A stretch of DNA of 64,000 nt from a virus (IMGVR_UViG_3300044929_000080); one strand, 5' to 3'; positions 27,794 through 60,903 are shown, counted from the first letter of the stretch. Notes: generated from the letters alone by a model not told the origin. Translations and numbers: made by a program.

Positions 27794-27833
27794 TCGCGGC
27801 TACCGTCACTTTTGTGAGTTGGGGTCGTTGCGA

Positions 27834-29423: not shown

Positions 29424-29442
29424 AAACTCGCTTGGGCCTAAG

Positions 29443-29477
29443 ACGCCGTCTACTTCTGTCAGGCGGCGTCCTTTTGT
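29443..29477 (+). terminator. rho-independent terminator after zinc-finger membrane protein gene
   Basis: GACGCCG-loop-CGGCGTC hairpin followed by CTTTTGT; overlaps the 3' end of the convergent gene. Confidence 0.45.
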
Positions 29478-30097
29478 CGGATCGAGAAATTCAACGTATT
29501 CATGTCGTATCCGCTCTGGATCAACGCCTCAAGCAGCGTTTCTGAAGGCTCCTTCGGCCCAAGCATACGCTGAATCTCCACATGACCATAACCCAAACGC
29601 CCCCACTCTTTCTCCAATCGCTCACGGCCCGGATTGTTTGCGTCCCATTCTTCGAATGCATTGCTCAAGACGCGCGCGTCGGATTGATTAGCTCCTGATC
29701 CACCCCAGGAATAGCAAAGTTGCTTTGTATATTTATCTTCTGGAGGACAACCCCAATATACCCGAAGCGCTCCTGGTTTAGCTTTCTTCAATGAGAAACG
29801 CTTGGGAAGCTTTTCTGGAGTATCTTCAACGGGTTTTAGCGCAACCGAAAACTTCAAAGTTGTTATATCGTATCCACGCTCTTTGAGAATGGAGACAAGA
29901 TTTGGCTCCCTCATACTGTCCTCGAAAATAGACATCAACATATTAACGTCACGTCCACTCGTTCCATCTCCACCGTGGGCGTAGACAAGGCTTGGATAAC
30001 TGAAGAAATCAAGTTTACCCCAGGCAATTTTGAGAGCGCGGGGCTTCGCATCGATCTGATAAATACGACGACGTTTAATTATATTAGTATCAGACAT
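29459..30097 (-). CDS. hypothetical protein with internal tandem duplication
   Basis: Two repeats of GGxGxSxxDxxxLxxxFE...LxxxGYDxxTLxFS within 212 aa. Confidence 0.5.
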   Translation of the reverse strand: MSDTNIIKRRRIYQIDAKPRALKIAWGKLDFFSYPSLVYAHGGDGTSGRDVNMLMSIFEDSMREPNLVSILKERGYDITTLKFSVALKPVEDTPEKLPKRFSLKKAKPGALRVYWGCPPEDKYTKQLCYSWGGSGANQSDARVLSNAFEEWDANNPGRERLEKEWGRLGYGHVEIQRMLGPKEPSETLLEALIQSGYDMNTLNFSIRQKDAA

Positions 30098-30353
30098 TTT
30101 CTACCCCGTAGACGAAATGGTTCACAAACTAAATAAGGATTAATTCATCATGGTAATATTAATTCTATTAATCAGGAAGCAGAAATTTTTTATGCATTTA
30201 CGTGGCATTTTACAAAGGAAGGAGTGCAGATGAGATTTATTGCTAAAATATCCTCCAGAACGAAACGTCGTTTCCACCTTGTCGGCCAGGTGTAAACAGA
30301 TACAGCAAATTAACACGATGATAAATGTCTGATAATCCAACGTTTTAAAAAAA

Positions 30354-31316
30354 TCAAAGACATCTATAAATTGGAGTATTCACTGCATCAAGTTTATTTA
30401 CCCATGTCAGATGCTCATCGAAAAGCTGGTCTTCACCACGCCACGTATATGCTGCCAGCACACCGTCCTTCGCTATCGAGAAATCGAGGCAAGCCATCTT
30501 CGGCGAGAGCAAATAGGGCGTTCCGCTCATCCAATAGTGACCGAAGAACGTCAGCTTGTTCGATGCCGCAATCTTCAGATGATCTGGGAGTGAAAGCTCA
30601 GGCAGGTTCTCTAAACCTTCTTCCGGCATGACAGCACTGCGATAATCAGTGGCGTCATCCTTCCACCATTGCAAGCGTGATTTTGTTCTAACGACACCAC
30701 CCTTGTCGGTAAAAGAAAAACCGTCAGGAAGTTCGATCTCCAACCCCTTGGTGACAACCTCAATTGGATCATAAAGGGCATGCCCCTTTTCGAAACTTGC
30801 TAGAAGATCGTCACGATTCATTGACCCATCATCGTTCATATGAGCTTTTAACGCGTTAAGAGAACTCGGATGCCAACATGCATGAGCCGCTCTGAAATCA
30901 TCCGTTTCAAAAGCGACAGCCAACGTCGAAAAGAATTCAACCAACTCTTTATGGAGATTTGAATCTTCACCAACAGCTTCGATGAAGGCTTTATGTTGAT
31001 GACGGTTTTTGGGCCCACGTAGTCGTAAATGTCGGCCGGACTTACTGTCGGGAACTGGTGTTGCATAACCGATTGCGTTGAGTTCGTGATTGCCCATCAA
31101 AACATGAGCTGCGCCAGCATCACGCATTCTCCGAGGGATGTCTATGGAACGAAGTTGGTCAGGACCGCGATCAATCAGATCACCCAGAAAGATAGCCATC
31201 CTGTTGGGATTTGAATGGCGATAGGTCCCGGCCCTGTTTACGTAACCAAGCTTTTCCAGAAGAGATTCAAGTGCATCAGCGTGACCGTGAATATCTCCAA
31301 TAAAATCGTATTCCAT
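30354..31316 (-). CDS. calcineurin-like metallophosphoesterase (ApaH/PrpE-like)
   Basis: GDIHGH, GDLIDRGPD, GNHE motifs. Confidence 0.8.
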   Translation of the reverse strand: MEYDFIGDIHGHADALESLLEKLGYVNRAGTYRHSNPNRMAIFLGDLIDRGPDQLRSIDIPRRMRDAGAAHVLMGNHELNAIGYATPVPDSKSGRHLRLRGPKNRHQHKAFIEAVGEDSNLHKELVEFFSTLAVAFETDDFRAAHACWHPSSLNALKAHMNDDGSMNRDDLLASFEKGHALYDPIEVVTKGLEIELPDGFSFTDKGGVVRTKSRLQWWKDDATDYRSAVMPEEGLENLPELSLPDHLKIAASNKLTFFGHYWMSGTPYLLSPKMACLDFSIAKDGVLAAYTWRGEDQLFDEHLTWVNKLDAVNTPIYRCL

Positions 31317-31566
31317 AAGACCTGCTACTGAAATTTAGATAAATCAATTAGACAGCAATCTCTCGTAAACAGCAACTCTCAACTGTCAGAATTTCTCATA
31401 TCATCCAATTCTTTTTCTATTCCAGAAAGCTCTTTACTTAATTCCGCCAGTTTAATGCCTTCAGGATCGATTGATGGATATGACTTAATCGTCTCAATGT
31501 CTTGAAAAACTTCGGTTTGTCTATCGACTAGATAATCGAATCTGGTGTACGCCATCACAGGAATCC

Positions 31567-32031
31567 TTACCGAGGACGAATGCCAATCAAAGCCGTAGCT
31601 TCTTCCCGGTCAATAAAAATCGAATGATTGATCGTCGTCTCCCCACCGAATTTGAAGTAATGACTTTCGAATCTATATCCTTCTACACCATCACAACGGC
31701 ATTCATATCCCTGATCTTTCATAGAATTCATGAACAATTCTGCTTCATCTGTGGTTGTAGAAACCTGGATCATCAGTTTCATATCCTCACCTGGAGACGG
31801 CTCTGGACGGACACGAATAATTGCTCCAGCTTCCTCAAGTCCAAGTAGGACTTCATAGCTCTCCAGCGGAGTGGGTCCGCTTTTCTGCATAAATCGTTCA
31901 ATATTGAATTCCGGCCGTAAGGGATCATTGTCCCCTTTTTTCGCCGTGTAATTCGGAAAACCAGACCTTGCCATGTTCTGAATGAATCGTAGTCCTTGAT
32001 CACGACTAACCTTGATTTCGATAAAATCCAT
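31567..32031 (-). CDS. hypothetical protein (approx 154 aa)
   Basis: Track ORF (to 32127) overlaps serS 3' end by 29 nt; internal ATG (MDFIEIKV) avoids overlap. Confidence 0.4.
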   Translation of the reverse strand: MDFIEIKVSRDQGLRFIQNMARSGFPNYTAKKGDNDPLRPEFNIERFMQKSGPTPLESYEVLLGLEEAGAIIRVRPEPSPGEDMKLMIQVSTTTDEAELFMNSMKDQGYECRCDGVEGYRFESHYFKFGGETTINHSIFIDREEATALIGIRPR

Positions 32032-32098
32032 CTTCTGCCCCTTGTTCACTGATACGGGAGACGTCCCAGTGACACCTCCCTCGAATTCAAAACCCAAA

Positions 32099-33391
32099 TT
32101 AATTAGGCTGGATAGTCTCAAGCCCACCCATATACGAACGTAACGAGGTCGGAACCGTGATGGTGCCGTCTTCGTTCTGATAATTCTCCATGATCGCGAT
32201 CAGGAGACGCCCGACAGCGACCCCGGAACCATTGAGCGTATGAACGAATTGTGTACCCTTCTGGCCCCTTACCTTGTGACGGGCATTCATGCGACGGGCC
32301 TGGAAGTCACCGCAATACGAGCAGCTTGAAATCTCACGGTAGGTCTTCTGGCCTGGTACCCAGACTTCGATGTCGTAGGTTTTGCGAGCGCTAAAGCCCA
32401 TATCGCCGCCGCAGAGTAGCATTACGCGGTACGGAAGCTCGAAAGCCTGCAGGATAGCCTCAGCAGCGCCTAGCATGCGCTCCAGTTCCACTTCGCCGTC
32501 CTCTTCCTTCACAATCGATACCAGCTCGACCTTATTGAACTGATGCTGCCGTAGAATACCTCGGACGTCACGGCCAGCCGATCCTGCTTCCGAACGGAAA
32601 CATGGCGTAAGCGCAGTAAACCGTAGCGGCAAGCTTTCCGTCTCCACGATCTGATCGGAAACCAGATTGGTAAGCGAGACCTCAGCTGTTGGGATCAGGT
32701 AACGGCCATCCGTCGTTTTAAAGAGATCTTCTTCAAATTTGGGAAGCTGTCCTGTGCCGAACATTGCGGTTTCGCGAACCAGCAGAGGCACCTGACATTC
32801 CTCGTAACCGTGCTTGCTTGCCATATCTAGCATAAACTGACCAAGCGCACGTTCCAGCTTAGCAATACCTCCACGAAGAACAACAAAGCGGGAACCCGAG
32901 ATGCGACCAGCGCTCTCGAAATCTAGACCGCCAAGTTCTTCACCAAGCTCAAAATGCTGTTTTGGCAAAAAACCCATTTCAGGGATCAATCCAACCGTCC
33001 GTACAAGAACATTGTCTTTCTCATCAACGCCAGCAGGTACACTATCGAGTGGCAAGTTAGGGAAAGTGGCAAGTCGATCAATCAGAGCGTCACCAACCGC
33101 TTTCGCTTTAACTTCCAGCGAGGAGATGGCTTCCTTCAAGGTTGCCACATCTTGCTTAAGAGCATCGCCGGAAGCCTTGTCACCTGCTTTATAAAAGGCT
33201 CCAATTTTCGATGAAAGAACCTTTACCTCATGATTTTTGGTTTCAATTTCCGAATTCGATTCATTGACGATATCACGGGAATCGCGAACAAATCCAAAAA
33301 TGAACAGCGCCTCATCACGCGTATAACCACGCTTCTCAAGGCCTGCAATAAATGCTTCCTCATTATCAATAATTGTTTTTGCGTTATGCAT
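32099..33391 (-). CDS. serS: seryl-tRNA synthetase (class II)
   Basis: N-terminal coiled-coil arm. Class II motif 2 FRSEAGSAGRDVRGILRQHQFNKVELV. GQLPKFEEDLFK. Motif 3 region GSGVAVGRLLIAIMENYQ. Confidence 0.9.
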   Translation of the reverse strand: MHNAKTIIDNEEAFIAGLEKRGYTRDEALFIFGFVRDSRDIVNESNSEIETKNHEVKVLSSKIGAFYKAGDKASGDALKQDVATLKEAISSLEVKAKAVGDALIDRLATFPNLPLDSVPAGVDEKDNVLVRTVGLIPEMGFLPKQHFELGEELGGLDFESAGRISGSRFVVLRGGIAKLERALGQFMLDMASKHGYEECQVPLLVRETAMFGTGQLPKFEEDLFKTTDGRYLIPTAEVSLTNLVSDQIVETESLPLRFTALTPCFRSEAGSAGRDVRGILRQHQFNKVELVSIVKEEDGEVELERMLGAAEAILQAFELPYRVMLLCGGDMGFSARKTYDIEVWVPGQKTYREISSCSYCGDFQARRMNARHKVRGQKGTQFVHTLNGSGVAVGRLLIAIMENYQNEDGTITVPTSLRSYMGGLETIQPN

Positions 33392-36233: not shown

Positions 36234-37052
36234 TTATGCAGCGATTTCTACGTATTCATTCATATTATTATCGAACACAGTGCCAAGACCGCGATCAAGC
36301 AGGACAGGTTCGACGTCGACAACAGACTTGAAACTGCCATCCGTCTGGAAAAAACGGAACGAGCCGTTATCGATAGCTACTGCCGTTAGGCGACCGCTAT
36401 GATAAGCACCCGTATCAATCGAAATGCGATTTTCCGTGACGACTGGAAGGTCGCCAACGACAGTGTGTCCGTGAACAATAATGTTCTGAAGACGCCCAAC
36501 ATGATCCAGAAACGGGTCCCTGATCCACATCAGGTTCTTTTCCGTCTGATCTGTTAGGGAAACCATTGGATCGATGCCAGCGTGGGCGAAAACGATACCG
36601 TCAACAGTTACCATTGGCTTGGCGTTCGCAAACATGCGCAGATGATCTCCATGCATGGTACGCACAAACTCCACTGCCTCATTTAGGTCGCCTGGATAAT
36701 ATGAAGCCAATGTTTCCATACCACCGCGAGACATCCAAGCCGCTGCATATCTGCGATCCTGTTCAAATACAGCTTTCAGAAAAAGGTCATCATGATTGCC
36801 CTTAAGAACAATTGAACCTTCATAATCGATGAGAGCTTCTGCAACGGCATCCATGGCCTGACGGGATTGAGGCCCCTTATCGCAGATATCACCTAAAAAA
36901 ATAAAAATGGGAGTGGCGTCATGAATTGCAGCATCTGCAACAGCATGCGCCATGATCGCGTTTAGAAGATCAGCGCGACCATGGACATCACCAATTGCAT
37001 AAGTGATTTTCTTTGACATTTCTCGCCCCTTTGGATGCGAGATTAATATCAT
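36234..37052 (-). CDS. calcineurin-like metallophosphoesterase (Ser/Thr phosphatase / ApaH-like)
   Basis: GDVHGR, FLGDICDKGP, GNHD motifs. Confidence 0.8.
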   Translation of the reverse strand: MILISHPKGREMSKKITYAIGDVHGRADLLNAIMAHAVADAAIHDATPIFIFLGDICDKGPQSRQAMDAVAEALIDYEGSIVLKGNHDDLFLKAVFEQDRRYAAAWMSRGGMETLASYYPGDLNEAVEFVRTMHGDHLRMFANAKPMVTVDGIVFAHAGIDPMVSLTDQTEKNLMWIRDPFLDHVGRLQNIIVHGHTVVGDLPVVTENRISIDTGAYHSGRLTAVAIDNGSFRFFQTDGSFKSVVDVEPVLLDRGLGTVFDNNMNEYVEIAA

Positions 37053-41085: not shown

Positions 41086-41949
41086 ATGCAAACAGGCGAC
41101 CAAATCGCAGAATCCATTAGACAACGCGCCAAGAATACAGGGATCGATCCACTCGAATCCATGCGCAGATTTGTCATGGAGCGCTTTATTGTTCGCTTAA
41201 ACCTCGCAGACAAGACGGACAAAGTCGTTCTGAAAGGCGGAATGGCATGGTGGCTTCAGCCAGAGCTGGTTGAACACGCTCGATCAACGTTCGATATAGA
41301 CATACACTTACATGTTCCAGAAAAACACGAAGACGTTGTAGCCCTGTTTAAAAAGGCACAGTCTATCGACTGCGAAGACGGGTGTCGCTTCGAGTTCAAG
41401 AAAATTCGCAAACTGGAACATTCCGGTGATCATGAAGGCTTACGCGTCATGGTTCGCGCTTTTATTGGAACGAAATTCGTGGACTTCCACAGCGACATTG
41501 GATTTGGAGGCACAAAGCCCTCTACTTTAAAAACTGTCAATTTCAAATCAATGCATCCTCGCGTATCAGGAGGAAGCATAATGATTACTCCTCCAGAATT
41601 TGTAGTTTCCGAAAAAATTTCAGCGATAATTAAGAACGGAACAAGCAACACTCGTATCAAAGATTATAACGATCTTTTTGTTCTTTCTAATATTCACATA
41701 GACGCAGCGGATTTGGTCTACGCCATTAATACAACATTTTCAGATCGTAAACAGGAACTTCCCTACTCAATTGACGAAATCGCTGGGCTGTCTCAACAAT
41801 ATGCTGATGCCAATCAAGCAGCTTGGGAAAAATGGCTTATCCAGTCCAACAGGACAGCAAGAATGCCTGGTGATTTCTCTCAAGTCGTAAATAGAGTAGG
41901 GTCTTTTACAGAAGAAATAATGGCTTATAAAAACACTTGGCGTCCATAG
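41086..41949 (+). CDS. nucleotidyltransferase of AbiEii/AbiGii (DUF1814) toxin family
   Basis: Pol-beta-type motif VVLKGGMAWW...RSTFDIDIHL (GG...DxD); size ~287 aa typical of AbiEii. Confidence 0.55.
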   Translation: MQTGDQIAESIRQRAKNTGIDPLESMRRFVMERFIVRLNLADKTDKVVLKGGMAWWLQPELVEHARSTFDIDIHLHVPEKHEDVVALFKKAQSIDCEDGCRFEFKKIRKLEHSGDHEGLRVMVRAFIGTKFVDFHSDIGFGGTKPSTLKTVNFKSMHPRVSGGSIMITPPEFVVSEKISAIIKNGTSNTRIKDYNDLFVLSNIHIDAADLVYAINTTFSDRKQELPYSIDEIAGLSQQYADANQAAWEKWLIQSNRTARMPGDFSQVVNRVGSFTEEIMAYKNTWRP

Positions 41950-43340: not shown

Positions 43341-44381
43341 TCACATCGATGGCGCAGATGACAGCGCGGTTTCGTTCGCGACCAACATGTCGAGATCCGC
43401 GAGCATCTGCGGGTAATAGTCCCTGCCCGCTATTTCAATGCCGACGTTATCACGTTGCAAATTCTCAATTGCATCCATTATGCTATCTTTCGCAGCAATA
43501 AGCCTCCCAAAGTCTCTTGCGGGCATACGCGCCATATTAATCGCAGCGTGATTAAGTGTTTCACTTTTAAATGTCTCAGGAATGCCGGGTACATATATAG
43601 GACGTCCCTGTAAAAGTGCATATCTCACCGCGTGCATTGAACCACTTTCCATATCCCCTTGCATAAAGAATGTTGCAGCGGAAACGCCAGTCTGAATGCG
43701 GTTCCTGCGTATTAGTGAAGACGGGTCATGTTCTTTACCCAACGACTGCTCGGTTATCACGACGCCACCGCTTTGAACTATGCGCTCTACAAGGGAAAAC
43801 GCGGAGTCAGATGAATACACATCAATGCCAGAGCCAATGATCGCGGCTGTAGGTGATTTAACGTCGAGAGCAATGTTATGAGCAATGGAATCTACACCAC
43901 GCGCAAGACCTGAAACGATAGTCCAGCCGTCCTCTGCTAAAGTAGCGGTAACTCGCCGAGAGACGGCCGCACCGAACTCCGTAGGACTGCGTGTACCTAT
44001 ACAGGCCACAGAACGATCCAGTAGGTTCATATCACCACTGGTGTAAATCACGAGAGGTGCGTCGGGTGATGATGCAAGGCGCTTAGGATAACCGTCGTCA
44101 TATATGCTGAATATGACTGCGCCCATTTCACGGGCATCAAATAATTCGCCTTCCGCGTTGTCTATTGCCTGAAGAACGGCATCCCGTCCTTCTAAAAGAA
44201 TTCGTCGAACGGGTGCTGTGGCTACACCCTTCAGGATTTCTTCAGTCGAATTAACAACGTCACCCAAGGTTTCGAATTTATCGAGAATTTTGTTCATCGT
44301 TGTCGGGCCAAGGCCTTTAATACCCAGTAGCGTCTTAATGCCCAACGCAGATTTAAGCTGTATGTCATCCATACCCAACAT
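43341..44381 (-). CDS. dprA: DNA processing protein A (DprA/Smf family)
   Basis: Rossmann-like core GLARGVDSIAHNIAL...TAAIIGSGIDVYSSDS; N-terminal HhH-like region. Confidence 0.8.
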   Translation of the reverse strand: MLGMDDIQLKSALGIKTLLGIKGLGPTTMNKILDKFETLGDVVNSTEEILKGVATAPVRRILLEGRDAVLQAIDNAEGELFDAREMGAVIFSIYDDGYPKRLASSPDAPLVIYTSGDMNLLDRSVACIGTRSPTEFGAAVSRRVTATLAEDGWTIVSGLARGVDSIAHNIALDVKSPTAAIIGSGIDVYSSDSAFSLVERIVQSGGVVITEQSLGKEHDPSSLIRRNRIQTGVSAATFFMQGDMESGSMHAVRYALLQGRPIYVPGIPETFKSETLNHAAINMARMPARDFGRLIAAKDSIMDAIENLQRDNVGIEIAGRDYYPQMLADLDMLVANETALSSAPSM

Positions 44382-44963: not shown

Positions 44964-45794
44964 GTGTATTTTGCCCGCAAAAGGAACCGACAAATGACTG
45001 CACCAATTGCAAATATGGAAAAGTACAACAAGGAAATGGTGAAATCGCTGGTCGACAAGATCGCTTTCATCGACAAGGTTGACGCCGAAGTTTTTGTCGA
45101 TTTTGGCTGCGCAGACGGCACCCTTCTTGGCTTCATCAAGAAGCTTTTCCCACAATACACTTTGATCGGTTACGACAACGATTCAGAAATGATCGAACGG
45201 GCGAAGACAAATCCTGAGAATGAAGGAATTGTCTTTACGACGGACTGGGCTGAGATCGAAGCCATCGTTAGTTCAGAGAAAAAACGCGGGCATCATGCCT
45301 GTGTTGTCCTGTCGTCCGTTATACATGAACTCCGCAGCTATCTTTCGGAACAGGAGATGGCTGACGTATGGAGCAAAATCTGGAGCGCTGGAACAAAGGA
45401 GAAGTTGTTCAGCTATGTCGCTATCCGAGATATGATGGTCAGCCGGACTACCAGCCGCGCTGCAGACCCGATGCAGGTTGCCCGTATTCGCCAGCTATTC
45501 GACAAAGACAAGCTAAACCAATGGGAAGCAATTTGGGGTTCTATCAACGAAAATTGGAGCCTGACGCATTTCCTGTTAACGTATCGCTACACCCATTCTT
45601 GGGAACGTGAGGCTCGGGAAAACTATCTCCCTGTGAACTACGAAGATTTTATGGCGAGCATTCCAATTGATTATTTTCCGATTTTCATGGAACACTACAC
45701 GCTTCCATTCCTGAGACGTTGTGTGCAAAAGGATTTTGGTTTTGATCTGTCGGATCGCACTCACTTGAAGCTGGTTCTCGAACTTCGCAAATAA
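44964..45794 (+). CDS. class I SAM-dependent methyltransferase
   Basis: Motif I VFVDFGCADGTLLGF; motif II-like TLIGYDND. Confidence 0.65.
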   Translation: MYFARKRNRQMTAPIANMEKYNKEMVKSLVDKIAFIDKVDAEVFVDFGCADGTLLGFIKKLFPQYTLIGYDNDSEMIERAKTNPENEGIVFTTDWAEIEAIVSSEKKRGHHACVVLSSVIHELRSYLSEQEMADVWSKIWSAGTKEKLFSYVAIRDMMVSRTTSRAADPMQVARIRQLFDKDKLNQWEAIWGSINENWSLTHFLLTYRYTHSWEREARENYLPVNYEDFMASIPIDYFPIFMEHYTLPFLRRCVQKDFGFDLSDRTHLKLVLELRK

Positions 45795-47722: not shown

Positions 47723-48346
47723 ATGGGTTGGGTTTTTGGAGCTAAACCAAACAATATTGGTGAATGGTTGCACAAGATTTATAGTCGGGAAACGAACGAC
47801 ACGAAACAGATCTGTCTTGACTACGCTATGGTCAACATGTCTGAGATTTATATCGCTGTTGAACAAACCGACAAGTATGGGATCAAAACCATAACCGCCG
47901 AAATCATGAGCATTAAGTTTGCAAACGAACGGGAAGACGGCTTCGTCTATCCACAAATGGGTTACAACGTATATGGAGAACAATGCGGAGTTCACCAGAC
48001 CAGCTGTCCCAAGCGAATTTTGGATGTCCTAACACCCACTGACGACATAACATCGAATGAGTGGCGTGATAAGTGTCGCAAAAGACTGGAACACAGAGCC
48101 TCCGTATCCAAACTTCAAGACGGTGACTACATACAATTCTCCGAGAAGATACAATTCAATAACGGAGAGCAACGCGACACGTTTAAAATTAAAAGCTTCA
48201 ACAAAAAGAAAATTCTTGTAGCCGTTTCTAACGATACAGGTGAAACACTTTTTCGTGCCCAAATAAAAAACTGGCGAGATATCGCCTTCAAGAAACTTGA
48301 AGAAGACGATCTCCCTTGGAAAGCAGTCAACAGGATGCGACCATGA
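47723..48346 (+). CDS. hypothetical protein (207 aa)
   Basis: Long ORF, no motif. Confidence 0.45.
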   Translation: MGWVFGAKPNNIGEWLHKIYSRETNDTKQICLDYAMVNMSEIYIAVEQTDKYGIKTITAEIMSIKFANEREDGFVYPQMGYNVYGEQCGVHQTSCPKRILDVLTPTDDITSNEWRDKCRKRLEHRASVSKLQDGDYIQFSEKIQFNNGEQRDTFKIKSFNKKKILVAVSNDTGETLFRAQIKNWRDIAFKKLEEDDLPWKAVNRMRP

Positions 48347-48885
48347 CAGTTCTGGGAAATATCGTCCTGAACTCCAACGAGCGCATCGTATTCCACACTA
48401 CAAGTGCCAGTTTTGATGCGTTTGACGAAGCCTACCTCGGCACTGGCGTGGACAACAACTCCGCGCTCGGTTTCTTTTTTTCGGACAATCCAGAAAACAT
48501 AATCCTGTACACAGACACAGATAGTCGTGTGCTAGTATCTGCTGTCCGCGTGGAGAAGCCATATGGTGAACTCTCCTATTACGAGTTGTTTGGCTATCAG
48601 GAAAACGGCGGCACGGTTACTTCCAAGGAGGACTTCGCATCGATGAGAGACAACCTCCTGATCCACGGATATGACTCCATTGAGTATGAAGACAATGAGG
48701 AAGCAATGCTGATAGCTCTTTCCGCATCTTCAATAAGGCCCCTCGCCTGGTTTTCAGTAGATCAGGCCACAGAGCTTGGCAAACAGATTGGAAGTTTAGC
48801 TGACCCGGAAGATGACAAAGCACGCCTAGTCTGCCTTCAGACCGTCTTGTCAGGATTGAACACAGATACCCCTTATCTACGTTAG
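48316..48885 (+). CDS. hypothetical acidic protein (189 aa)
   Basis: Overlaps upstream ORF by 31 nt; start may be an internal Met. Confidence 0.4.
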   Translation: MESSQQDATMTVLGNIVLNSNERIVFHTTSASFDAFDEAYLGTGVDNNSALGFFFSDNPENIILYTDTDSRVLVSAVRVEKPYGELSYYELFGYQENGGTVTSKEDFASMRDNLLIHGYDSIEYEDNEEAMLIALSASSIRPLAWFSVDQATELGKQIGSLADPEDDKARLVCLQTVLSGLNTDTPYLR

Positions 48886-52144: not shown

Positions 52145-53176
52145 TTAAGCGCTTCTCATTGCATTTGACACTACTTCTGCGTGCATCCAATGGTTCTCTG
52201 TAGAAACGTGGTTTGAACGCACCCATTTGAAGAATGAACGCTGAAAATCGCTGTAACGGATCGGACCAGCAAGCCGTCCGACAAAGCCTTCACATACTGT
52301 CGTGTCGATATCCTTGGCCAACTTTTCCAAAACTTTCAGTTCAAAAGGCCCGTCAAAGAGAACCTTAACTGGGGTTACACCCAGAAGATCAAACCATTCG
52401 ATGGTTTGATCCCAATCGAGGCAGACATTATGATCATTCCATACAGAGAAACCATAAAAGTAACTTTCAAGATCCTCGTAACGGATAGAATGCTGAGCAA
52501 ACATATTCTCACCGCAAACACGCCAGCCCTCTGGAATGTCATGCGCAATTGTTGACCAGAAACGCTTTAGCCAATCACGGCTTGGATGACTGCGACCATC
52601 GATGCTGCGAGCATGCATGTAATCTGAATACAGACTTGAATTCTCGCCATCCATCTTGATGCTCACAATGACACGTTTGCCGAGCAAGTGAGACCAATCT
52701 GCGATTACCTTGTCATCGGACGTCACACATGCAGAGAAAGGCAGATGTGGCGTGCGTGGATATTTATAGTAGCGTAAGTAGCGGTCGAGCATATTGCCCG
52801 TCTTCAAAACCTTTTGAACGCCTTCTTCATGAAACAGTTCCCCACGAAGACGCATACCATTGGACAGGACAACTCCGCCCCACTTTTCGTAAACCGTATC
52901 CTCGTCGAAATGAGGAGGAATGACTGGTTTCGAAATACCGCACTTTTCTCGCAAAGTTTCTACTGAGATTTCAGTCGTTTCGCATTGATAATGGTGTTCA
53001 TTGCAAACTGAAGCTCCATTATCGAGATAGTAGCCACCATCCGGAAATAATCTACGCTCAAGAATATGATGAGGGTCAGCCGCAGGTGCGCCGCAGATAA
53101 CACATTTATGATTATCTCGTTCAAAAACGTATTTCTTGAAATCTTTTCTGCTAAGAAGACCTTTTGGGGCAGACAT
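52145..53176 (-). CDS. HNH endonuclease - ATP-dependent polynucleotide (RNA/DNA) ligase fusion protein
   Basis: N-terminal HNH: CVICGAPAADPHHILERRLFPDGGYYLDNGASVCNEHH. Ligase nucleotidyltransferase motifs I KMDGEN, III VCGENMF, IV CEGFVGR, V FKWVR. Confidence 0.7.
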   Translation of the reverse strand: MSAPKGLLSRKDFKKYVFERDNHKCVICGAPAADPHHILERRLFPDGGYYLDNGASVCNEHHYQCETTEISVETLREKCGISKPVIPPHFDEDTVYEKWGGVVLSNGMRLRGELFHEEGVQKVLKTGNMLDRYLRYYKYPRTPHLPFSACVTSDDKVIADWSHLLGKRVIVSIKMDGENSSLYSDYMHARSIDGRSHPSRDWLKRFWSTIAHDIPEGWRVCGENMFAQHSIRYEDLESYFYGFSVWNDHNVCLDWDQTIEWFDLLGVTPVKVLFDGPFELKVLEKLAKDIDTTVCEGFVGRLAGPIRYSDFQRSFFKWVRSNHVSTENHWMHAEVVSNAMRSA

Positions 53177-53566
53177 TTTATTACTCTCCTTGGAGGCCTG
53201 TTAATGGCAGAGATATAGTAAAAAATCAATAATATTAATTAAGATTTTGTCGGGATAATATCCTGCCGTGATGCGCCCATAGCCCTCGGGACTATTTTCA
53301 GAAATTTATTTTAAAATTATCACTTGATTTTTATTTCTGAGCGCATCATCTTTAAATCACAGCAGACACGAAAGGAATAAACGATGTCGTAGCTCTTCTA
53401 AACGGGACGTCCGCACGGCTAAGGCCGAAACCCATAACAGCAAATCGAGTGCAGCCTTTTATGGTATAGCACCAAAGGTTCCTCCCTAGTTCCTGTTCTC
53501 GGAATTGAAATTCAAACCGAAGACAATATGGCCCAACAAACAAATGGCCAAAAAAGGAACATAATC

Positions 53567-53923
53567 ATGGAACCAAATACTCTCAACACAGAATCCCTGA
53601 ACAAGTTTATCAAACTCGCTCGCACACATAAGCGTGACGAAGAGATCGTTGATACGATTGCTGATAGCATTGGCGTACTTGAACGTAACGCTTATCTGGC
53701 ATTGGTCTCCGAATGGAAACAGACCTTTAAGGTACTATCGAACGACATTCGTGAAGCCAAGCTCATGCGAAAGACCGCTGACACCGAAACTGAACGCAAT
53801 CAGTGGAACTTCACACGCTGGCAGCTCCGTTGGAAAGCTCATTTCATGATGACTGCTCGGCTAGGCATCAAGCAGGTGGCCCGCAGGCATTGGGAAGCGA
53901 AGATCGCAAACGTCGCTGCTTAA
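53567..53923 (+). CDS. small hypothetical basic protein
   Basis: AAGGAAC RBS upstream of internal ATG (MEPNTLN...); track ORF starts 53528. Confidence 0.35.
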   Translation: MEPNTLNTESLNKFIKLARTHKRDEEIVDTIADSIGVLERNAYLALVSEWKQTFKVLSNDIREAKLMRKTADTETERNQWNFTRWQLRWKAHFMMTARLGIKQVARRHWEAKIANVAA

Positions 53924-53987
53924 GCGAACATGCGTCCAGGGGGATCGCTGTAGCAGCGACCCCCGATAGCCATCCAGGAGAGATAGA

Positions 53988-54341
53988 TTGAGTTCAGAAA
54001 CAACGGCCTATTTTGAAGTGCGTTACACGTACTACATGTTCAACAGTGGGGCAGCTGATAATGGATATTACACAAGCAGCATCAGAAAAAACACGGCTGA
54101 GGAAGCGATTGAATTAGCGGATAAAATTGAAAAACACGCTATCCATCACCGATTTCACCATGCCTCACATCATGATCGTCCATTGGAGAAAACCTACGAT
54201 CCAAGCGGCTATACGGAAGACAATGAGGACGAATCTCGCCTATTGATCGAAGACCTCATTCCTAATGATGGCTATTTCATTTCAGCGAAAGCGTATGAAA
54301 CATTGGTTCAGCGAACTCCGTTGAACCTCACACCAGAATAA
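53988..54341 (+). CDS. small hypothetical protein, His-rich (117 aa)
   Basis: ORF with HHRFHHASHH stretch. Confidence 0.35.
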   Translation: MSSETTAYFEVRYTYYMFNSGAADNGYYTSSIRKNTAEEAIELADKIEKHAIHHRFHHASHHDRPLEKTYDPSGYTEDNEDESRLLIEDLIPNDGYFISAKAYETLVQRTPLNLTPE

Positions 54342-54402
54342 ATGGCAGAACTTGTAATTAGTTCAACACCGTGGCCATCATCGAGAAGGCACAGCGAACC
54401 AG

Positions 54403-55380
54403 TTAGCCTTCTCGATGATGTAAAAGTTCCCATTTTATTGTACCTCCAATTTTTTGGGTCGTTTCATAAAAAGCCATAACAATTTTAATCTGGCTCACGC
54501 GCTCATCCACTTCGGCATAATCGGCCCAATGATTGGTATGCGCAAATCGCTCGCCATCAGCAGTGCAAAATACGAACCGTCCGGGATTTTTACTAGGTAA
54601 CTTCATATCGGCAATTGCAGAGCGATTAAAACCATTCACCTTTATATCGTTTAACTGTTTAACGGCCTCCTTTGCAATTAGGTTTGAAACAGTGATTTGA
54701 AGTTTTTCGCCTCCATTCCCAAGTTCCAAATATGAAATAAGCAGGAGATAGATTGCAAGGCCAACCGTGAACCACCAACCTGCATAAGCCGAATAACTTC
54801 CAATCACTAGTACCCCGATAACAGATACATACAGCGTAAATCGTTTTTCGTTCACTTTATTTAAAAATGAACTAAACACCGCACGCATAATTTGTCCGCC
54901 ATCTAACGGATATATGGGGAGCATATTAAAAATGAACAAAACTGCATTGACCGCGAAAGTCACAATTAAGAAACCATCTAATGTAAAAATGTGATCATCA
55001 TAAGCAACTGGTCTGGTAGCGTAGAGAACTGACAATGAAAGAAGTGTAATAACAGCATTAACAATGGGACCAGATATTGAAATAAAAAAACGTGCTGATG
55101 GTTTATCTATTGGGGAGGCAAAGTTCGCTGCGCCACCGATACAGCTCAATGAAATTGATGTTGTGATTATTCCGAATTTCTTAGCTGCAATTACATGGCC
55201 AATTTCATGTAAAAATACCGAAAAGAAAACAATCCCCCACCAGACAACACGTTCCAGAGCGCCATCAACTCCACCTTTGTTATACCCGTAGAAGCCAAAT
55301 CCGAACAATAAGGCAATCAGCGACCAATGAACGGTGATTGGAATTCCAAAAAAATTACCCACATTATGTGATCGAAACAT
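54403..55380 (-). CDS. M50 family site-2 protease-like intramembrane metalloprotease
   Basis: HExxH in TM helix (FLHEIGHVIAAKKFG) plus LDGG motif (PIYPLDGGQIMRAVF); polytopic. Confidence 0.85.
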   Translation of the reverse strand: MFRSHNVGNFFGIPITVHWSLIALLFGFGFYGYNKGGVDGALERVVWWGIVFFSVFLHEIGHVIAAKKFGIITTSISLSCIGGAANFASPIDKPSARFFISISGPIVNAVITLLSLSVLYATRPVAYDDHIFTLDGFLIVTFAVNAVLFIFNMLPIYPLDGGQIMRAVFSSFLNKVNEKRFTLYVSVIGVLVIGSYSAYAGWWFTVGLAIYLLLISYLELGNGGEKLQITVSNLIAKEAVKQLNDIKVNGFNRSAIADMKLPSKNPGRFVFCTADGERFAHTNHWADYAEVDERVSQIKIVMAFYETTQKIGGTIKWELLHHREG

Positions 55381-55564
55381 TTAAACCTCTTATTTTGGCA
55401 CGTAATTATACCATTATTCCTTTTTAATCAACTATGGTTTACGCAATTAACAATCTATCGATGAATTCGATTTTGCTGACGATTACAACGTTGGCAACCA
55501 TTACGCGTTTGTTGATTGCTATTAAAAATTATAAATTCTTGATAAGCATTTTTGAGGACTAAAA

Positions 55565-55879
55565 ATGGAAGCCATTGAATTTGGAAAAAACTATCGTGTA
55601 ACTGTTCGAGTAGATGAACTTTTGGCCTTCGCCCGTAGATGGCCATGTCACAACTTCGATCTTGATGCTGAATACGTCTTCGAATTTGATGCTAATAATG
55701 GCGATTTGGTTGACGTAGATAAGTATATCGACGGCAAATACACTGTGCCAGAGGAAACAGAAGACGGCCCTGAATTTGTTGCCCTGTCTGAAGATGCATG
55801 TGAATTTGGCGCTCGCGAACTCGGCCTATCAAGCGTTCTAGAAATCCGATTTGGTGAAAAATCAGGCCCTCGCCCTTAA
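55565..55879 (+). CDS. small hypothetical acidic protein (104 aa)
   Basis: ORF in intergenic-like region. Confidence 0.35.
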   Translation: MEAIEFGKNYRVTVRVDELLAFARRWPCHNFDLDAEYVFEFDANNGDLVDVDKYIDGKYTVPEETEDGPEFVALSEDACEFGARELGLSSVLEIRFGEKSGPRP

Positions 55880-55960
55880 ACAGAGAGACGACAGATAGTC
55901 ATAAGAAAAGCGCCTCATGGGCGCTTTTCTTATGACCAAGGCATCTTTGATCTGCCAGAA

Positions 55961-56515
55961 CTACATCTTCATCAATGCCTCATGCATGACTGGTTCCATT
56001 CTTGTCGGCCCATTGATAACCACCTCTCCGTCGAAGCCATTGAGAAAGGCTTTCAAATCGATATCTGATTCAATGACAATCTCACGAATTTCAAACCGAG
56101 ATAGGAAGTCGTCTGCCAGTCCAGATAAGACCTTTTTCATTCGGCCAAGTCTCAGATAAGTCTCGACTGTTGCGATATCTCCTTGGACGTCAGACAAGAA
56201 CCTCGAACGTACTGACGCGCCTGTCGGACCCCAAATAGCCTGCTCGCGTAGCCATCCTTCAAATTTAAGAACCATATCCTTACAGTCCACAACGAGCATT
56301 ACGCTAGCCGTTTCCAACGGTTCAATTTCAAATAGATGGTCGTCATCACGAGCGTAATCAGATGCCTGTTCTTTCGACGTTGACGCAAAAGAACAGCTGT
56401 CACCATAACGCTTTGTTTGGAAGCCAAGTGCCTGCAATCGCTCAGACAGCAACTTATCAAGAAGCGGGACGCGAGGATGATAGTCGGACCCCTTACCGTG
56501 ATAGAGTGCTGTCAT
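55961..56515 (-). CDS. hypothetical protein (184 aa)
   Basis: 8-nt spacing to upstream phosphoesterase gene on same strand. Confidence 0.4.
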   Translation of the reverse strand: MTALYHGKGSDYHPRVPLLDKLLSERLQALGFQTKRYGDSCSFASTSKEQASDYARDDDHLFEIEPLETASVMLVVDCKDMVLKFEGWLREQAIWGPTGASVRSRFLSDVQGDIATVETYLRLGRMKKVLSGLADDFLSRFEIREIVIESDIDLKAFLNGFDGEVVINGPTRMEPVMHEALMKM

Positions 56516-56522
56516 TTCAACC

Positions 56523-57293
56523 TCAATTGATGATTGTCGAAGGCCTCAGATTCCGCAAGTCAAGAACTAGGCTTTCGACGTATTCAGAATTTTCACCAAA
56601 ATAGCCTCGGCTATTGCAAATCACACGGGAATTCCCGACGACATAGTCATGATTTGAGTGAACAGCTCCATGCACCCAAAGGTCGGGAGCCGAAAATCCG
56701 TCGAGAAGAGAAGACAGATCGGTCGTAAAGCACGCATTATGGGGTGAACCATCGTAACGTGAATGAACAGAGTTACGATGAGGCGTATGATGCGTAACAA
56801 CAATTTTAGTACCGCTAAACGGCTCAGCCAGCTTGCTCCCGATAAACGAACGAGCCTTCTTGTGCTCTTCCAGCTGTCTCGATGGAGACCAGTTAGCAAT
56901 CATAACATTATCCGCTAGGAAGTTAGCCTGCACGAGTTCTTCTGCACGTTCTGAACCATCGAGTTGAAAGTCCGTCCACAGCGTGGAGCCGATGAAACGA
57001 ACACCATTGATGTCGTATGTGTCGTTAATCAGAAGGCGTACACCATTCTTTTCAGCCGCCTTGAGCGCTAGTTCGTTCGCTTTATCAAAACTCGTCCCGT
57101 AGTAGTCGCGATTACCGGGGACATAAATAACAGGCATCTTTTCAGCCAAATCCGACAAAGCGACCACAGATGACACCAGATTAGGTGAATGGTCACCTGC
57201 TACAATTGCGATATCTGCATCAATGTGATCACAGAAATCTGTTATACGGTCCCAGAAATCACATTGATGATCCGAAAAAATGAATGCTTTCAT
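56523..57293 (-). CDS. calcineurin-like metallophosphoesterase (third copy)
   Basis: Motifs FSDHQCD (DxH), IVAGDHSPN (GDxx), VPGNRDYY (GNxD). Confidence 0.7.
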   Translation of the reverse strand: MKAFIFSDHQCDFWDRITDFCDHIDADIAIVAGDHSPNLVSSVVALSDLAEKMPVIYVPGNRDYYGTSFDKANELALKAAEKNGVRLLINDTYDINGVRFIGSTLWTDFQLDGSERAEELVQANFLADNVMIANWSPSRQLEEHKKARSFIGSKLAEPFSGTKIVVTHHTPHRNSVHSRYDGSPHNACFTTDLSSLLDGFSAPDLWVHGAVHSNHDYVVGNSRVICNSRGYFGENSEYVESLVLDLRNLRPSTIIN

Positions 57294-57416
57294 AACTAGC
57301 CTTTCCTCAATCTCATATAAGAGATTATTTTCATCATCTTTTAGATATACTTAAAAATTAAGTCAACAATTATTGCATTATTATGCAAATATATATGCGG
57401 TATGAGTATCCATGTA

Positions 57417-58019
57417 TTATCTTTTTATAAGACCTTCTTTTTCGAGGATATCACTCGCTTCAGCATCAACAATTAAAACATCCAAGAAATAACTGTAATC
57501 ATCTTTGCTAATTTGACCATCGTTGGTAGCGCGATGTACTACCGACACAATACCATTGTCTGCAAACCTCGCATCCCAATCCTTTATGTGTTCTTTGAAT
57601 ACGCCATACCAGTCAGGTGTTGATGTTTTGGGTAAATTGAGCTTCTCCGTTAGTAACACGGAGGCCACCTTAAAATCCTGGACCTGATCATCCACGGTCA
57701 ACAAACGCCAGCCAAGACGGTTGTAAATCTGCTGAATTGTATTCTTATAGGGATCGGTCTGATCGAACAGCTCCCCTTTTACAAAATCCATGTAGTAATC
57801 AATGTAGTCCTCGCCTTCATTCCGCAATTCTGCAATGAGACCACCTGCATAACGCCATGAACACGAAAAACGTTGTCTGTCATCATTAATGTAAACTTCA
57901 TTGCAGAAGCTCTGATAAGCCGCGCAGGCAAAAATCTCATCTTTCAACAAGGCGAGGAATTCAGTATCATTTCTTAACGCCTCTTCCATATTCATGGCAA
58001 ACTCCTCGTTCAAAGACAA
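57417..58019 (-). CDS. hypothetical protein (200 aa)
   Basis: ORF preceded by AT-rich promoter-like spacer. Confidence 0.45.
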   Translation of the reverse strand: MSLNEEFAMNMEEALRNDTEFLALLKDEIFACAAYQSFCNEVYINDDRQRFSCSWRYAGGLIAELRNEGEDYIDYYMDFVKGELFDQTDPYKNTIQQIYNRLGWRLLTVDDQVQDFKVASVLLTEKLNLPKTSTPDWYGVFKEHIKDWDARFADNGIVSVVHRATNDGQISKDDYSYFLDVLIVDAEASDILEKEGLIKR

Positions 58020-58212
58020 CGAACAAATTCTCGCTATTTTTGGTTTACAATAATATTGTTATTCTGTAAATCCATACAGCAAATGGATTTGGCCAACCTA
58101 TCGAGTTATTTTCATATTAAAGCGGATTAAATATTTTTATTAATGCCAAATAATTAGCATCTATATTTTCTATATTTTATGATAAAACCAAAATTATCAC
58201 AGGAGTAGACGC

Positions 58213-58521
58213 ATGAAAAAATATGTATCTGAAAACACACTGAAAAAGCTCCTAAACAATTTAAAGAGCGACGGTCAAATTGACCGTGGTTCTGTAATCC
58301 AGATTTTGGAAAGCCTTGATGCAGAGCGTGTCATGCTCAGATCAATGGATCGCGAAGCTGCTACTCATGTGGAAACTGTTATCTGTATGCGCACTGATTT
58401 TGACGGTGATAAGGAAACAGGATGGAAAGGACTCGGTGCTGCTTTAAGTCGCGCACTTGATGAACGTGACCATTTGCGGAAAATTGCTTCCGCAAATGGT
58501 CAGACTGGTGTCGATTCATAG
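58213..58521 (+). CDS. small hypothetical protein (102 aa)
   Basis: AGGAG RBS (cacaggagtagacgcATG). Confidence 0.4.
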   Translation: MKKYVSENTLKKLLNNLKSDGQIDRGSVIQILESLDAERVMLRSMDREAATHVETVICMRTDFDGDKETGWKGLGAALSRALDERDHLRKIASANGQTGVDS

Positions 58522-58548
58522 ACACCACATCCATAGAGTATCGACTAC

Positions 58549-58887
58549 TTAGGGACGAAACGAACTATCGTCATTGAAATCGTCGCCATCAGTGGTATCT
58601 GATTCAAACTCCGCTCTATCCAGCCAAAGAACAGAATCCCACTCACCTGACTGCAATTCTTGCTCTGTAATAGGATTTTCTGACAGTACAAATCCTATTC
58701 GATCCACCAGATGGAAACCTGGACGAAGATACTGATTTTCGTTTTCGGTCTCAATAACAGTCCACACAGAAAGAGGATCAGCAGCCTTCACCTTTTCCAA
58801 GTCATCGCCATACGTTTCATATAACGATGTCCCATTGTTTTCTATAACATCTCCGAACCTATCATTCCATTGGTCTTCATTCTTCAT
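58549..58887 (-). CDS. small acidic hypothetical protein (112 aa)
   Basis: ORF downstream of HD-Pnk gene, same strand. Confidence 0.35.
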   Translation of the reverse strand: MKNEDQWNDRFGDVIENNGTSLYETYGDDLEKVKAADPLSVWTVIETENENQYLRPGFHLVDRIGFVLSENPITEQELQSGEWDSVLWLDRAEFESDTTDGDDFNDDSSFRP

Positions 58888-58953
58888 GATTTTGTCTCTC
58901 TGTAGTTTAAGATGTCATAATATGCGCGTCGAAAACAAACAGCAAATTAGATT

Positions 58954-60150
58954 TTAAATGGTTGGAAATACCTCCATTTGCATCCGAACGCCATTAACAC
59001 TCACCAAATTGCCCTCATAATACCATTCAACACAGTGTCCTTCTAATGACGATGGCGGCTGAAGCTTGCGGGCTAACCGATTGATCACATCGATGGGTAC
59101 GGTTGCTTTACGTTCATGATTTTGTTTCATCAAACGCGATGGCTCTACTTCCAAATATACGATTTTGATCCGCGCATTATAATCCCGCAAAAGTCGTGTA
59201 ATTTTTTCTCTGTTTAATTTCGTAACGTTCACCGCGTTCCAAACAAAATCTCTAGACGCTCGCAAGTGCTTACGAGCTTCCTCCAAACCTGCCTGAATGA
59301 TCTTGCCCTGGTTCCCAGAAGGATCGATATCAAGGTCTTCTCGCAGTCGATCCAGACTGACAACTGGAAGACCACTAAGATTTTGAGATATCCATGTATC
59401 CTTACCTGTTCCAGGCAACCCGCAAACCAGAGTTACTTCACATCGATAATCCTCATGTGCCTCATACCATGGGCTACGGTCATCCTTTTCAAAATATGCA
59501 AATCGACTTTCGTCGTTTGCGAATTCAAATGGACGATCCAGGACACCCATTTCTAAAAACACCTCCTTCGAGAGATCAATCTTTAGCAACAACTCAGAAA
59601 GATCATGACAAATACGCCCTCTTGCATCTGCTTCTGCGTGCGCAAGTAGCTGAGAGGAAGTGGCCGCCAATGAATATTGGCATGCCATTTTGGATGCATT
59701 ATCGCGCTCATATAGCCAAAACGGCAACTGATGTGCACTGATGATCGAGCAAATTTCTTCACGAAGAACAAGATCAAAGCCAGCAGACCGCATTAAATCG
59801 CGGGCAATTGCAGCTCCAAGCTTGGAATGGCCAACCGAAGATACGCGGCCGTTTTCATCCACTTCAGTTGTTCCTGGCTTACCAATGTCATGAAAAACCG
59901 CAGCCCAAAACATCTTGAACTGGTCATCGTCCGACATCGCCTTCCATGCTTTACCATCGACAAGTTGCTCTAGAACCATTCTGGTATGTGTCGCCACATC
60001 ACCTTCCGCGTGAAAGATTTTGTCCTGAAGACAAAATTTCAACTCACGAAGCTCATCGCATAAATTCTCGATTGCATTCCAATCGAAATATAGCCTGTCA
60101 GGCGATGGTGTTAATGCCCTTAAATCAGGCAATGTAAAATTGCGATTCAT
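58954..60150 (-). CDS. HD-Pnk-type RNA end-healing enzyme (N-terminal HD phosphohydrolase + C-terminal T4 Pnk-like 5'-OH polynucleotide kinase)
   Basis: HD motif AVFHDIGKPG. Kinase P-loop VCGLPGTGKDTWISQN (compare T4 Pnk GCPGSGKSTWAREF) and KATVPIDVINRLARKL (compare T4 Pnk KAVPIDVLRSMYKSM). Confidence 0.8.
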   Translation of the reverse strand: MNRNFTLPDLRALTPSPDRLYFDWNAIENLCDELRELKFCLQDKIFHAEGDVATHTRMVLEQLVDGKAWKAMSDDDQFKMFWAAVFHDIGKPGTTEVDENGRVSSVGHSKLGAAIARDLMRSAGFDLVLREEICSIISAHQLPFWLYERDNASKMACQYSLAATSSQLLAHAEADARGRICHDLSELLLKIDLSKEVFLEMGVLDRPFEFANDESRFAYFEKDDRSPWYEAHEDYRCEVTLVCGLPGTGKDTWISQNLSGLPVVSLDRLREDLDIDPSGNQGKIIQAGLEEARKHLRASRDFVWNAVNVTKLNREKITRLLRDYNARIKIVYLEVEPSRLMKQNHERKATVPIDVINRLARKLQPPSSLEGHCVEWYYEGNLVSVNGVRMQMEVFPTI

Positions 60151-60339: not shown

Positions 60340-60903
60340 ATGAATAAACCTGTATCATGGGGCAGCTTCGATCCTGAGTTCATCAATGAGCTTTCTAAAT
60401 GGATAGATGGTCGCTCAGTTCTTGAAGTTTTCGCCGGAAACGGGTTCTTATCAAAACTTCTGGCCGATAAAGGAGTGAACATCAAAGCAACTAGTTTGCT
60501 TTCCGGTCATGATGGACATCAATATGGCATGCAATTTGATGTTGAGGAACTCGATGCGTCCAGTGCAATCAAGTCATACGGAGATACCTCAGAAATCCTG
60601 CTCATGTCTTGGCCAGTGGCGTCAGAGGCTGCCACAAAAGCCGCTTTGCTATGGGGACACGAAAGGCCTATCGTCTTTATTGGCGAAGTTACAAATCATG
60701 ACTTAGGTTTTGGTGGTTTAGGAGGATGCGCAAGCGATTTGTTTTTCGAGCTAACGAATGAAGGCAAGGTATTCAATGCATATAAACCACGTAACATGAT
60801 CGAACGCGCCGCCATCCGCTTTGTCGATCCTGAATATGCCCTAAAAATTGATCCAAGCTATCAATCCAGAAAACAGAAAGACACCAAAACACTTGAACCA
60901 TGA
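60340..60903 (+). CDS. hypothetical protein, possible Rossmann-fold methyltransferase-like
   Basis: VLEVFAGNGFLSKLLADKG resembles SAM-binding motif I (weak); track ORF starts 60280. Confidence 0.35.
   Translation: MNKPVSWGSFDPEFINELSKWIDGRSVLEVFAGNGFLSKLLADKGVNIKATSLLSGHDGHQYGMQFDVEELDASSAIKSYGDTSEILLMSWPVASEAATKAALLWGHERPIVFIGEVTNHDLGFGGLGGCASDLFFELTNEGKVFNAYKPRNMIERAAIRFVDPEYALKIDPSYQSRKQKDTKTLEP

Follow-up and report, generated by a model that had tools for sequence, protein, structure and literature searches.

Do the two predicted repair enzymes encoded close together in the viral genome fragment IMGVR_UViG_3300044929_000080 form one pathway for the repair of broken nucleic-acid strands, and which of the genes around them belong to it? 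The fragment was analyzed as a stretch of 64,000 nucleotides (hereafter, the window), and the genes in question delimit the interval 52145-60150. One of them encodes an HD-Pnk, in which an HD domain is fused to a polynucleotide kinase, and the other encodes an HNH nuclease domain fused to a ligase-type adenylyltransferase domain (HNH-ligase). An earlier note on this DNA, made from the sequence alone, had proposed a possible RNA repair or anti-ribotoxin module of unusual organization that also included a metallophosphoesterase, with an M50 protease and small orphan open reading frames (ORFs) lying in between. In the present analysis, the HD-Pnk/ligase pair was retained, and the phosphoesterase, the protease, and the orphan ORFs were found to be unassociated with it; the annotation is accordingly corrected from a five-gene module to a pair of linked repair enzymes. 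The probability that the two window enzymes function jointly is estimated here at roughly 0.6. The window carries a new, loosely organized representative of a repair module that is already known, rather than a novel type of system.

Domain composition of the two enzymes

All the ORFs named in the earlier note are present at their predicted positions, and the assignments of the HD-kinase fusion, HNH-ligase, M50 protease, and metallophosphoesterase were confirmed by Pfam, NCBIfam, and PHROGs. The two enzymes and their domains are as follows:

58954..60150, minus strand: HD-Pnk, predicted bifunctional end-healing enzyme (398 amino acids; Pfam HD and AAA_33)
59611..60027, minus strand: HD phosphoesterase domain (residues ~42-180)
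59053..59439, minus strand: P-loop 5'-OH polynucleotide kinase domain (residues ~238-366)
52145..53176, minus strand: HNH-ligase fusion (343 amino acids; matches phrog_24030 end to end, 4.7e-131)
52967..53149, minus strand: HNH nuclease domain (residues ~10-70; PHROG HNH models and IscB HNH model)
52154..52765, minus strand: DdrP/LigB-type adenylyltransferase domain (residues 138-341)

The HD-Pnk matches Pfam HD at residues 54-147 (E-value 3.8e-10) and the AAA_33 kinase at residues 239-366 (E-value 1.6e-17), and the same two-domain architecture was found in 672 homologues of this protein. For the HD domain, both Pfam HD and TIGR00277 (HDIG) scored above their cutoffs. Its metal-binding residues H47, H55, H87-D88, H108, H140, and D175, invariant in an alignment of 15 sequences, form the complete set of the HD-Pnk type, in which the HD motif and D175 are common to the Deinococcus radiodurans protein DR_B0098. 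The nearest solved or curated relatives of this domain are the HD domains of CCA-adding enzymes (Aquifex 3wfp, 3.6e-11 in a profile search; TIGR02692, 1.1e-13).

In the kinase half, residues K250, D267, R270, and R347 are also invariant in the 15-sequence alignment. In a pairwise alignment they match K15, D35, R38, and R126 of T4 Pnk, whose reference sequence was confirmed at 100% against T4 records; S16 of T4 Pnk is replaced by Asp in the window protein. The motifs had been described as near-identical to those of T4 Pnk. The P-loop is indeed similar (GLPGTGKDTW in the window, GCPGSGKSTW in T4), as are VSLDRLR and INRDDYR, and the lid is nearly the same (RKA-TVPIDVI and RGTKAVPIDVL). That description had missed Asp251 at the position of T4 Ser16, which gives the Walker-A motif the sequence G-K-D in place of G-K-S/T (residues 249-251, window positions 59398-59406), and the overall identity to T4 Pnk is 20% (E-value 1e-5). 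In the profile search against solved structures, the HD-Pnk matched PSTK (9e-13), the kinase of Clostridium thermocellum Pnkp (4gp7, 3e-9), and T4 Pnk (3e-4). By BLASTP, it is 27% identical to DR_B0098 over residues 17-382, i.e., 94% of its length (E-value 2e-19). The 5'-kinase activity of DR_B0098, later named HD-Pnk, was demonstrated previously (PMC1997131; PMC6300522). The window HD-Pnk is most closely related to alphaproteobacterial genes.

The ligase domain of the second enzyme is recognized by PF09414 (RNA_ligase) at residues 168-319 (E-value 2.6e-26; 93 bits, cutoff 27). Over residues 138-341, the protein shares 47% identity with DR_B0100 (LigB/DdrP) of D. radiodurans (E-value 1e-68), and K174 is aligned to K40 of that protein, the mutation of which abolishes adenylylation (PMC1997131). 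Invariant residues mark ligase motifs I, III, IV, and V (K174-x-D-G-x-N, E223, E296-G297, and K317-x-V-R320). The protein ends ~20 residues past motif V, lacking both OB and Rnl2-type C-terminal domains, and so corresponds to a minimal adenylyltransferase. An AlphaFold2 model of the fusion (predicted local distance difference test, pLDDT, 91; predicted template modeling score, pTM, 0.85) was matched by Foldseek about equally to Rnl5, Rnl3, Trl1, Rnl2, and Rnl1 (~1e-5) and to DNA ligases at ~1e-3. No specific affinity was seen that would place the protein strictly within the T4 Rnl2 family: Rnl2 was not among the PDB matches of the profile search at E-value <= 1, and the Rnl2 C-terminal domain is missing.

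On the N-terminal domain, PHROG HNH models reach 3e-7. Residues C25, C28, D34, H36, H37, N53, C58, and H62 are invariant in 31 sequences and provide the zinc ligands and the catalytic His/Asn set. The fusion is common: full-length homologues of ~343 amino acids form at least 120 clusters with 53-92% identity. Such proteins were noted earlier in jumbo phages (Iyer et al. 2021, PMC7824862), and the closest relatives of the window ligase are jumbo-phage HNH-ligases.

Association of HD-Pnk with ligases

HD-Pnk was found in at least 591 bacterial species loci, and gene neighborhoods were counted for the best 80 of them. A PF09414 ligase directly adjoins HD-Pnk in 75 of these 80 loci, being located just upstream and on the same strand in 72 of the 75; in Maliponia, the two ORFs overlap. 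Viral HD-Pnks are rare, with seven IMG/VR contigs and one full-length match in 50,697 phage records. Each of the seven contigs has a ligase at most 2.2 kb upstream on the same strand, and in the 462-kb huge phage LR756500.1 the HNH-ligase ends 2 nucleotides ahead of HD-Pnk. These counts agree with the expectation of the earlier note that HD-Pnk usually sits beside a ligase. An operon of HD-Pnk with a ligase was reportedly described by Munir and Shuman in 2017 as frequent, not obligatory. No recurrent third gene was found to flank the bacterial cassette, and clustering of the co-directional neighbors gave clade-local synteny only.

The HNH domain recurs as well. A free-standing HNH, 38% identical to that of the window, lies between ligase and HD-Pnk in three of the seven IMG/VR contigs; in total, a homologous HNH is fused to the ligase or located inside the cluster in four of the seven. 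In one myxobacterial-type locus, it is found ~1.2 kb downstream of the pair. This recurrent association is the most interesting lead of the analysis.

Some of these loci have further peculiarities. Contigs L100 (8196-11092), L101 (7104-11083), and L103 carry, in one direction, the ligase, an unassigned gene, the free HNH, an unassigned or BtpA-family gene, and HD-Pnk. Two PF09414 ligase paralogues (727-1383 and 4122-4805) with a DUF4326/DUF488-like gene between them precede HD-Pnk in L098. In LR756500.1 (L008, positions 18000-33000), the pair is accompanied by genes for a PARP-like ADP-ribosyltransferase, a Macro-domain protein, an R2K ATP-grasp protein, an AAA ATPase, and a major-vault-protein-like protein. 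The stand-alone genes nearest to the window HD-Pnk (L003 and L007, bacterial contigs) adjoin flagellar clusters or are located on Rep3-type replicons.

From the domain identities, conserved catalytic residues, homology to characterized proteins, and neighborhood linkage elsewhere, we infer a pathway of two enzymes that repairs breaks in nucleic-acid strands, its bacterial homologue being the ligase/HD-Pnk cassette of Runella and Deinococcus. Breakage would yield a 5'-OH end on one side and a 2',3'-cyclic or 3'-phosphate on the other, as produced by metal-independent ribotoxins and by some DNA damage. The 3' or cyclic phosphate would then be removed by the N-terminal HD domain of HD-Pnk, and the 5'-OH would be phosphorylated by its C-terminal P-loop kinase. 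Subsequently, the ligase domain, self-adenylylated on K174, would activate the 5'-phosphate and seal the break. The HNH domain (residues 1-137 with the conserved linker) may contribute nucleic-acid binding and/or end trimming, which are absent from the minimal ligase.

Several observations weigh against this joint pathway. DR_B0100 and the Runella ligase auto-adenylylate but joined none of the DNA or RNA substrates tested (PMC1997131, PMC6097658), and this ligase family is not known to seal strands. The sole genetic data for the family tie the D. radiodurans operon to ionizing-radiation and mitomycin resistance and thus point to DNA (PMC6300522). Throughout the HD-Pnk clade of proteobacteria, cyanobacteria, and phages, the G-K-D motif keeps its Asp, and DR_B0098 has G-K-S. 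The HD-Pnk genes with 53-61% identity are orphans in bacterial contigs, ligase-free within 10 kb. The HNH-ligases with 55-60% identity in other large contigs stand alone, as do those of cultured jumbo phages, in which HD-Pnk was not detected as a full-length match. Each enzyme is evidently able to work without the other.

The layout of the window itself points in the same direction. Nine ORFs are located in the 5.8-kb gap between the two genes, four of them on the opposite strand. The 258-kb metagenomic contig L001 has the same gene order, including both genes and the opposite-strand ORFs (its HD-kinase protein is 77% identical). The retention of both genes there counts in favor of the pair; because the order is kept, the opposite-strand ORFs can be regarded as real genes. 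With such genes in between, no single operon is formed and the interval is divided into several transcription units, the HD-Pnk and the HNH-ligase apparently belonging to separate ones. Hence, encoding in a ligase operon, a feature of the HD-Pnk type, is not observed in the window. Because their closest relatives differ, the two genes were probably not inherited as one operon.

Much of this evidence would equally suit two functionally independent enzymes: a stand-alone jumbo-phage HNH-ligase and a separately acquired host-type HD-Pnk serving, for example, tRNA 3'/5'-end maintenance, the 6-kb proximity being coincidental. The ligase-free orphans, the phages that carry the fusion with no detectable HD-Pnk, and the opposite-strand genes all fit this view, as does the absence of an adjoining healing enzyme beside the HNH-ligase relatives in L093-L095, RsoM2USA, and ME3. 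It is opposed by the adjacency of the two families in 75/80 bacterial and 7/7 viral loci and by the similarity of the window ligase domain to DR_B0100, a known partner of HD-Pnk. Moreover, by our own estimate, the chance of two given genes lying within 6 kb in a genome of ~250 kb is only ~5%. Independence is therefore considered unlikely, if still a realistic prospect. Because the families are neighbors in nearly all of the counted loci, a functional pair in an unusual dispersed layout is a reasonable reading of the window. Heal-and-seal pairing of the two families is well supported by gene neighborhoods, and the window would represent a loosened, multi-transcript version of it.

Neighboring genes and the rest of the window

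Eleven ORFs were found in the interval 52145-60150, seven on the minus strand and four small ones on the plus strand. From the HD-kinase gene (58954-60150) to the HNH-ligase gene (52145-53176), the minus-strand ORFs in between encode proteins of 112 and 200 amino acids, the phosphoesterase, a protein of 184 amino acids, and the M50 protease. The neighbors with assigned families or folds are the following:

54403-55380, minus strand: Peptidase_M50 (E-value 1e-20)
56523-57293, minus strand: metallophosphoesterase (weak Metallophos match, 25 bits; phrog_1649 'metallo-phosphoesterase', 2.4e-40)
60340-60903, plus strand: class I methyltransferase-like Rossmann fold (AlphaFold2 pLDDT 92)

The phosphoesterase, in whose sequence GNRD replaces the usual GNHD/E motif, had been connected by the earlier note to the phosphatase of bacterial Pnkp. 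The connection holds at the superfamily level only: TIGR04075, the NCBIfam model of Pnkp, gave no match to the phosphoesterase, whose sole match in that database was TIGR03729 at 7e-08, below the cutoff of the model, and no PDB chain was found at E-value <= 1. It is one of three calcineurin-like Metallophos genes in the window (30354-31316, 36234-37052, and 56523-57293), and its family is present in 187 phage records from many phage types.

The protein encoded at 60340-60903 had been put forward as a possible Hen1-like methyltransferase. Its top 50 Foldseek PDB matches are mainly small-molecule methyltransferases together with one putative tRNA methyltransferase; Hen1 is not among these 50, and no Pfam or NCBIfam match was found. 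The Hen1 assignment was rejected, the fold being generic; another methyltransferase of the window (44964-45794) has no PDB match either, Hen1 included. The 60340-60903 protein belongs to a family of ~110 unannotated proteins that are encoded in phage-like contigs and in genomes of Rhizobium, Agrobacterium, and Pararhizobium and share an invariant E-x-F-A-G-N-G motif.

Could these genes nevertheless be additional components of a wider module, analogous to the Pnkp phosphatase and Hen1? Both genes are in or next to the interval, their layout is conserved in L001, and the 60340-60903 protein has an S-adenosylmethionine-methyltransferase-like fold. In addition, viral contig L102 has a weak phosphoesterase match (25% identity, E-value 2e-10) ~2 kb downstream of HD-Pnk, and in L094 the genes for a related phosphoesterase and an HNH-ligase are 2.6 kb apart. 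However, the close relatives L001 and L002 are the only other contigs in which the phosphoesterase, the M50 protease, the orphan ORFs, and the 60340-60903 protein turned up near HD-Pnk. Neither the phosphoesterase nor the 60340-60903 protein is located beside HD-Pnk in the 80 bacterial loci, in the Rhizobium leguminosarum plasmid locus, or in LR756500.1. The 187 phage records with the phosphoesterase contrast with one for full-length HD-Pnk, and the two sister genes in the window, the lack of Pnkp-model and PDB matches, the absence of Hen1 from the top fold matches, and the absence of a recurrent third cassette gene likewise speak against a wider module, which we regard as very improbable. By this comparison, the phosphoesterase was rejected as a module member. 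Together with the M50 protease, the orphan ORFs, and the methyltransferase-like gene, it appears to be a neighbor, not a component.

The small intervening ORFs matched no family, Pfam included. Two proteins, F184 and N122, each start with an LYHG motif; their pairwise comparison gave no significant similarity. Promoter and terminator scans scored no better than shuffled sequence, and the k-mer comparison of upstream regions yielded AT-rich words only and no evidence of shared regulation. In PADLOC, neither the ligase nor the HD-Pnk matched a defense system. As the earlier note had stated, no anticodon-nuclease-like protein was recognized among the scanned ORFs of the window.

Megablast against phage genomes gave no match for the region, no capsid or terminase gene was recognized in the 64-kb window, and no tRNA genes were found in it. 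The best phage matches of the ligase and phosphoesterase belong to jumbo or T4-like phages of Salicola, Ralstonia, Caulobacter, Brevundimonas, and Rhizobium; judging from its genes, the element is probably a jumbo phage of an alphaproteobacterium. The window is rich in genes for RNA and DNA metabolism and also encodes an AbiEii/AbiGII-type nucleotidyltransferase, a toxin-type enzyme on a phage-looking genome, and, besides M50, an M48 protease. The coordinates of these cargo genes are:

9145-10698: RNase J
32099-33391: seryl-tRNA synthetase
21778-27793: AddAB-like helicase-nuclease pair
43341-44381: DprA
48316-48885: polyvalent-protein-type ADP-ribosyltransferase
41086-41949, plus strand: AbiEii/AbiGII-type nucleotidyltransferase (Pfam 6e-19; PDB 9hlo, 2e-15)

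Substrate and relation to known systems

RNA repair, or defense against ribotoxins, is one reading of the pair. As for the target, RNA is slightly favored over DNA: the HD domain is nearest to those of tRNA CCA-enzymes, the kinase is nearest to PSTK and the Pnkp kinase, and the ligase fold is nearer to RNA ligases. Relatives acting on tRNA or RNA, together with the likeness to RNA ligases, fit a T4-style anti-ribotoxin role.

HNH nucleases are mostly DNases, and the pair could alternatively heal and seal 3'-phosphate/5'-OH breaks in phage DNA, a role suggested for the radiation-induced D. radiodurans ligB operon, with the HNH domain acting on DNA. AddAB-like and DprA DNA-repair genes are also present in the window. 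DR_B0098 phosphorylates a 5'-OH DNA oligonucleotide (PMC1997131), DNA damage induces its operon, and HD-Pnk is required for ionizing-radiation resistance (PMC6300522). A title cited in PMC6097658 calls the Runella HD-Pnk a DNA/RNA end-healing enzyme. Against DNA repair stand the tRNA or RNA substrates of the enzymes nearest to the HD and kinase domains, the better match of the ligase fold to RNA ligases than to DNA ligases, and the failure of DR_B0100 alone to ligate DNA (PMC1997131). DNA repair thus seems rather unlikely as the function of the pair, while keeping a substantial share of plausibility.

A more speculative and, in our view, improbable scenario is that HNH, the DdrP-type minimal ligase, and HD-Pnk constitute a dedicated three-activity machine that cuts, heals, and seals, by which large phages would excise and rejoin toxin-cleaved or chemically blocked nucleic acid. 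The recurrence of the same HNH, fused to the ligase, as a separate gene in the cluster, or just downstream, would speak for an integral component and against a selfish insertion. Such a machine would naturally act on something other than a plain 3'-OH/5'-phosphate nick, and the failure of two ligases of this family to seal standard substrates would thereby be explained.

The ligase/HD-Pnk cassette occurs in at least 591 bacterial species genomes, and its biochemistry comes from two bacteria. In viruses, selection probably comes from attack on nucleic acids by the host; for this reason, the viral versions are a practical means of finding the substrate and the cause of the apparent inactivity of the isolated ligases.

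Among the characterized systems, C. thermocellum Pnkp-Hen1 shares a related kinase domain (4gp7, E-value 3e-9), and the window, too, has calcineurin-type phosphoesterases. In that system, however, kinase, phosphoesterase, and ligase form one polypeptide that needs Hen1, whereas the window has an HD phosphatase, a separate ligase, and no Hen1 found. T4 Pnkp and Rnl1, which counter the PrrC anticodon nuclease, are likewise phage-encoded healing and sealing enzymes with a homologous kinase, of which K15, D35, R38, and R126 are kept in the window. The T4 healing enzyme has a C-terminal HAD phosphatase instead of the N-terminal HD domain, and its sealing partner is Rnl1 instead of a minimal DdrP-type ligase with HNH.

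The LIG-HD-Pnk system of Runella slithyformis, according to the description in PMC6097658, combines an HD 2',3'-phosphoesterase and a 5'-OH kinase with an ATP-dependent ligase. This likeness is based on published descriptions. The Runella ligase ORF overlaps the HD-Pnk ORF, and pairing with a ligase is likewise seen in most of the bacterial homologues here; the cluster described there also contains Tpt1 and MTase-HIT, whereas Tpt1 was not recognized among the scanned window ORFs.

The D. radiodurans ligB/ddrP operon, in the order DR_B0100 ligase, DR_B0099 PARG, and DR_B0098 HD-Pnk, contains homologues of both window proteins. The ligases share the adenylylation lysine, and the two HD-Pnk proteins agree in the order of their HD and kinase domains and in their active-site residues. 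The three Deinococcus genes form a single operon with PARG in the middle, whereas 5.8 kb separate the two genes in the window, where PARG is missing. The N-terminal HNH and linker of the window ligase are absent from DR_B0100, and the P-loop has GKS in D. radiodurans but GKD in the window.

The HNH 'Rnl2-family' ligases of the jumbo phages Salicola SCTP-2, Ralstonia RsoM2USA, Caulobacter CcrSC and CcrBL9, and Acinetobacter ME3 are the same fusion, of the same length and with 46-55% identity. In contrast to these cultured phages, which gave no full-length HD-Pnk match, the window, its relatives, and LR756500.1 join the fusion with an HD-Pnk.

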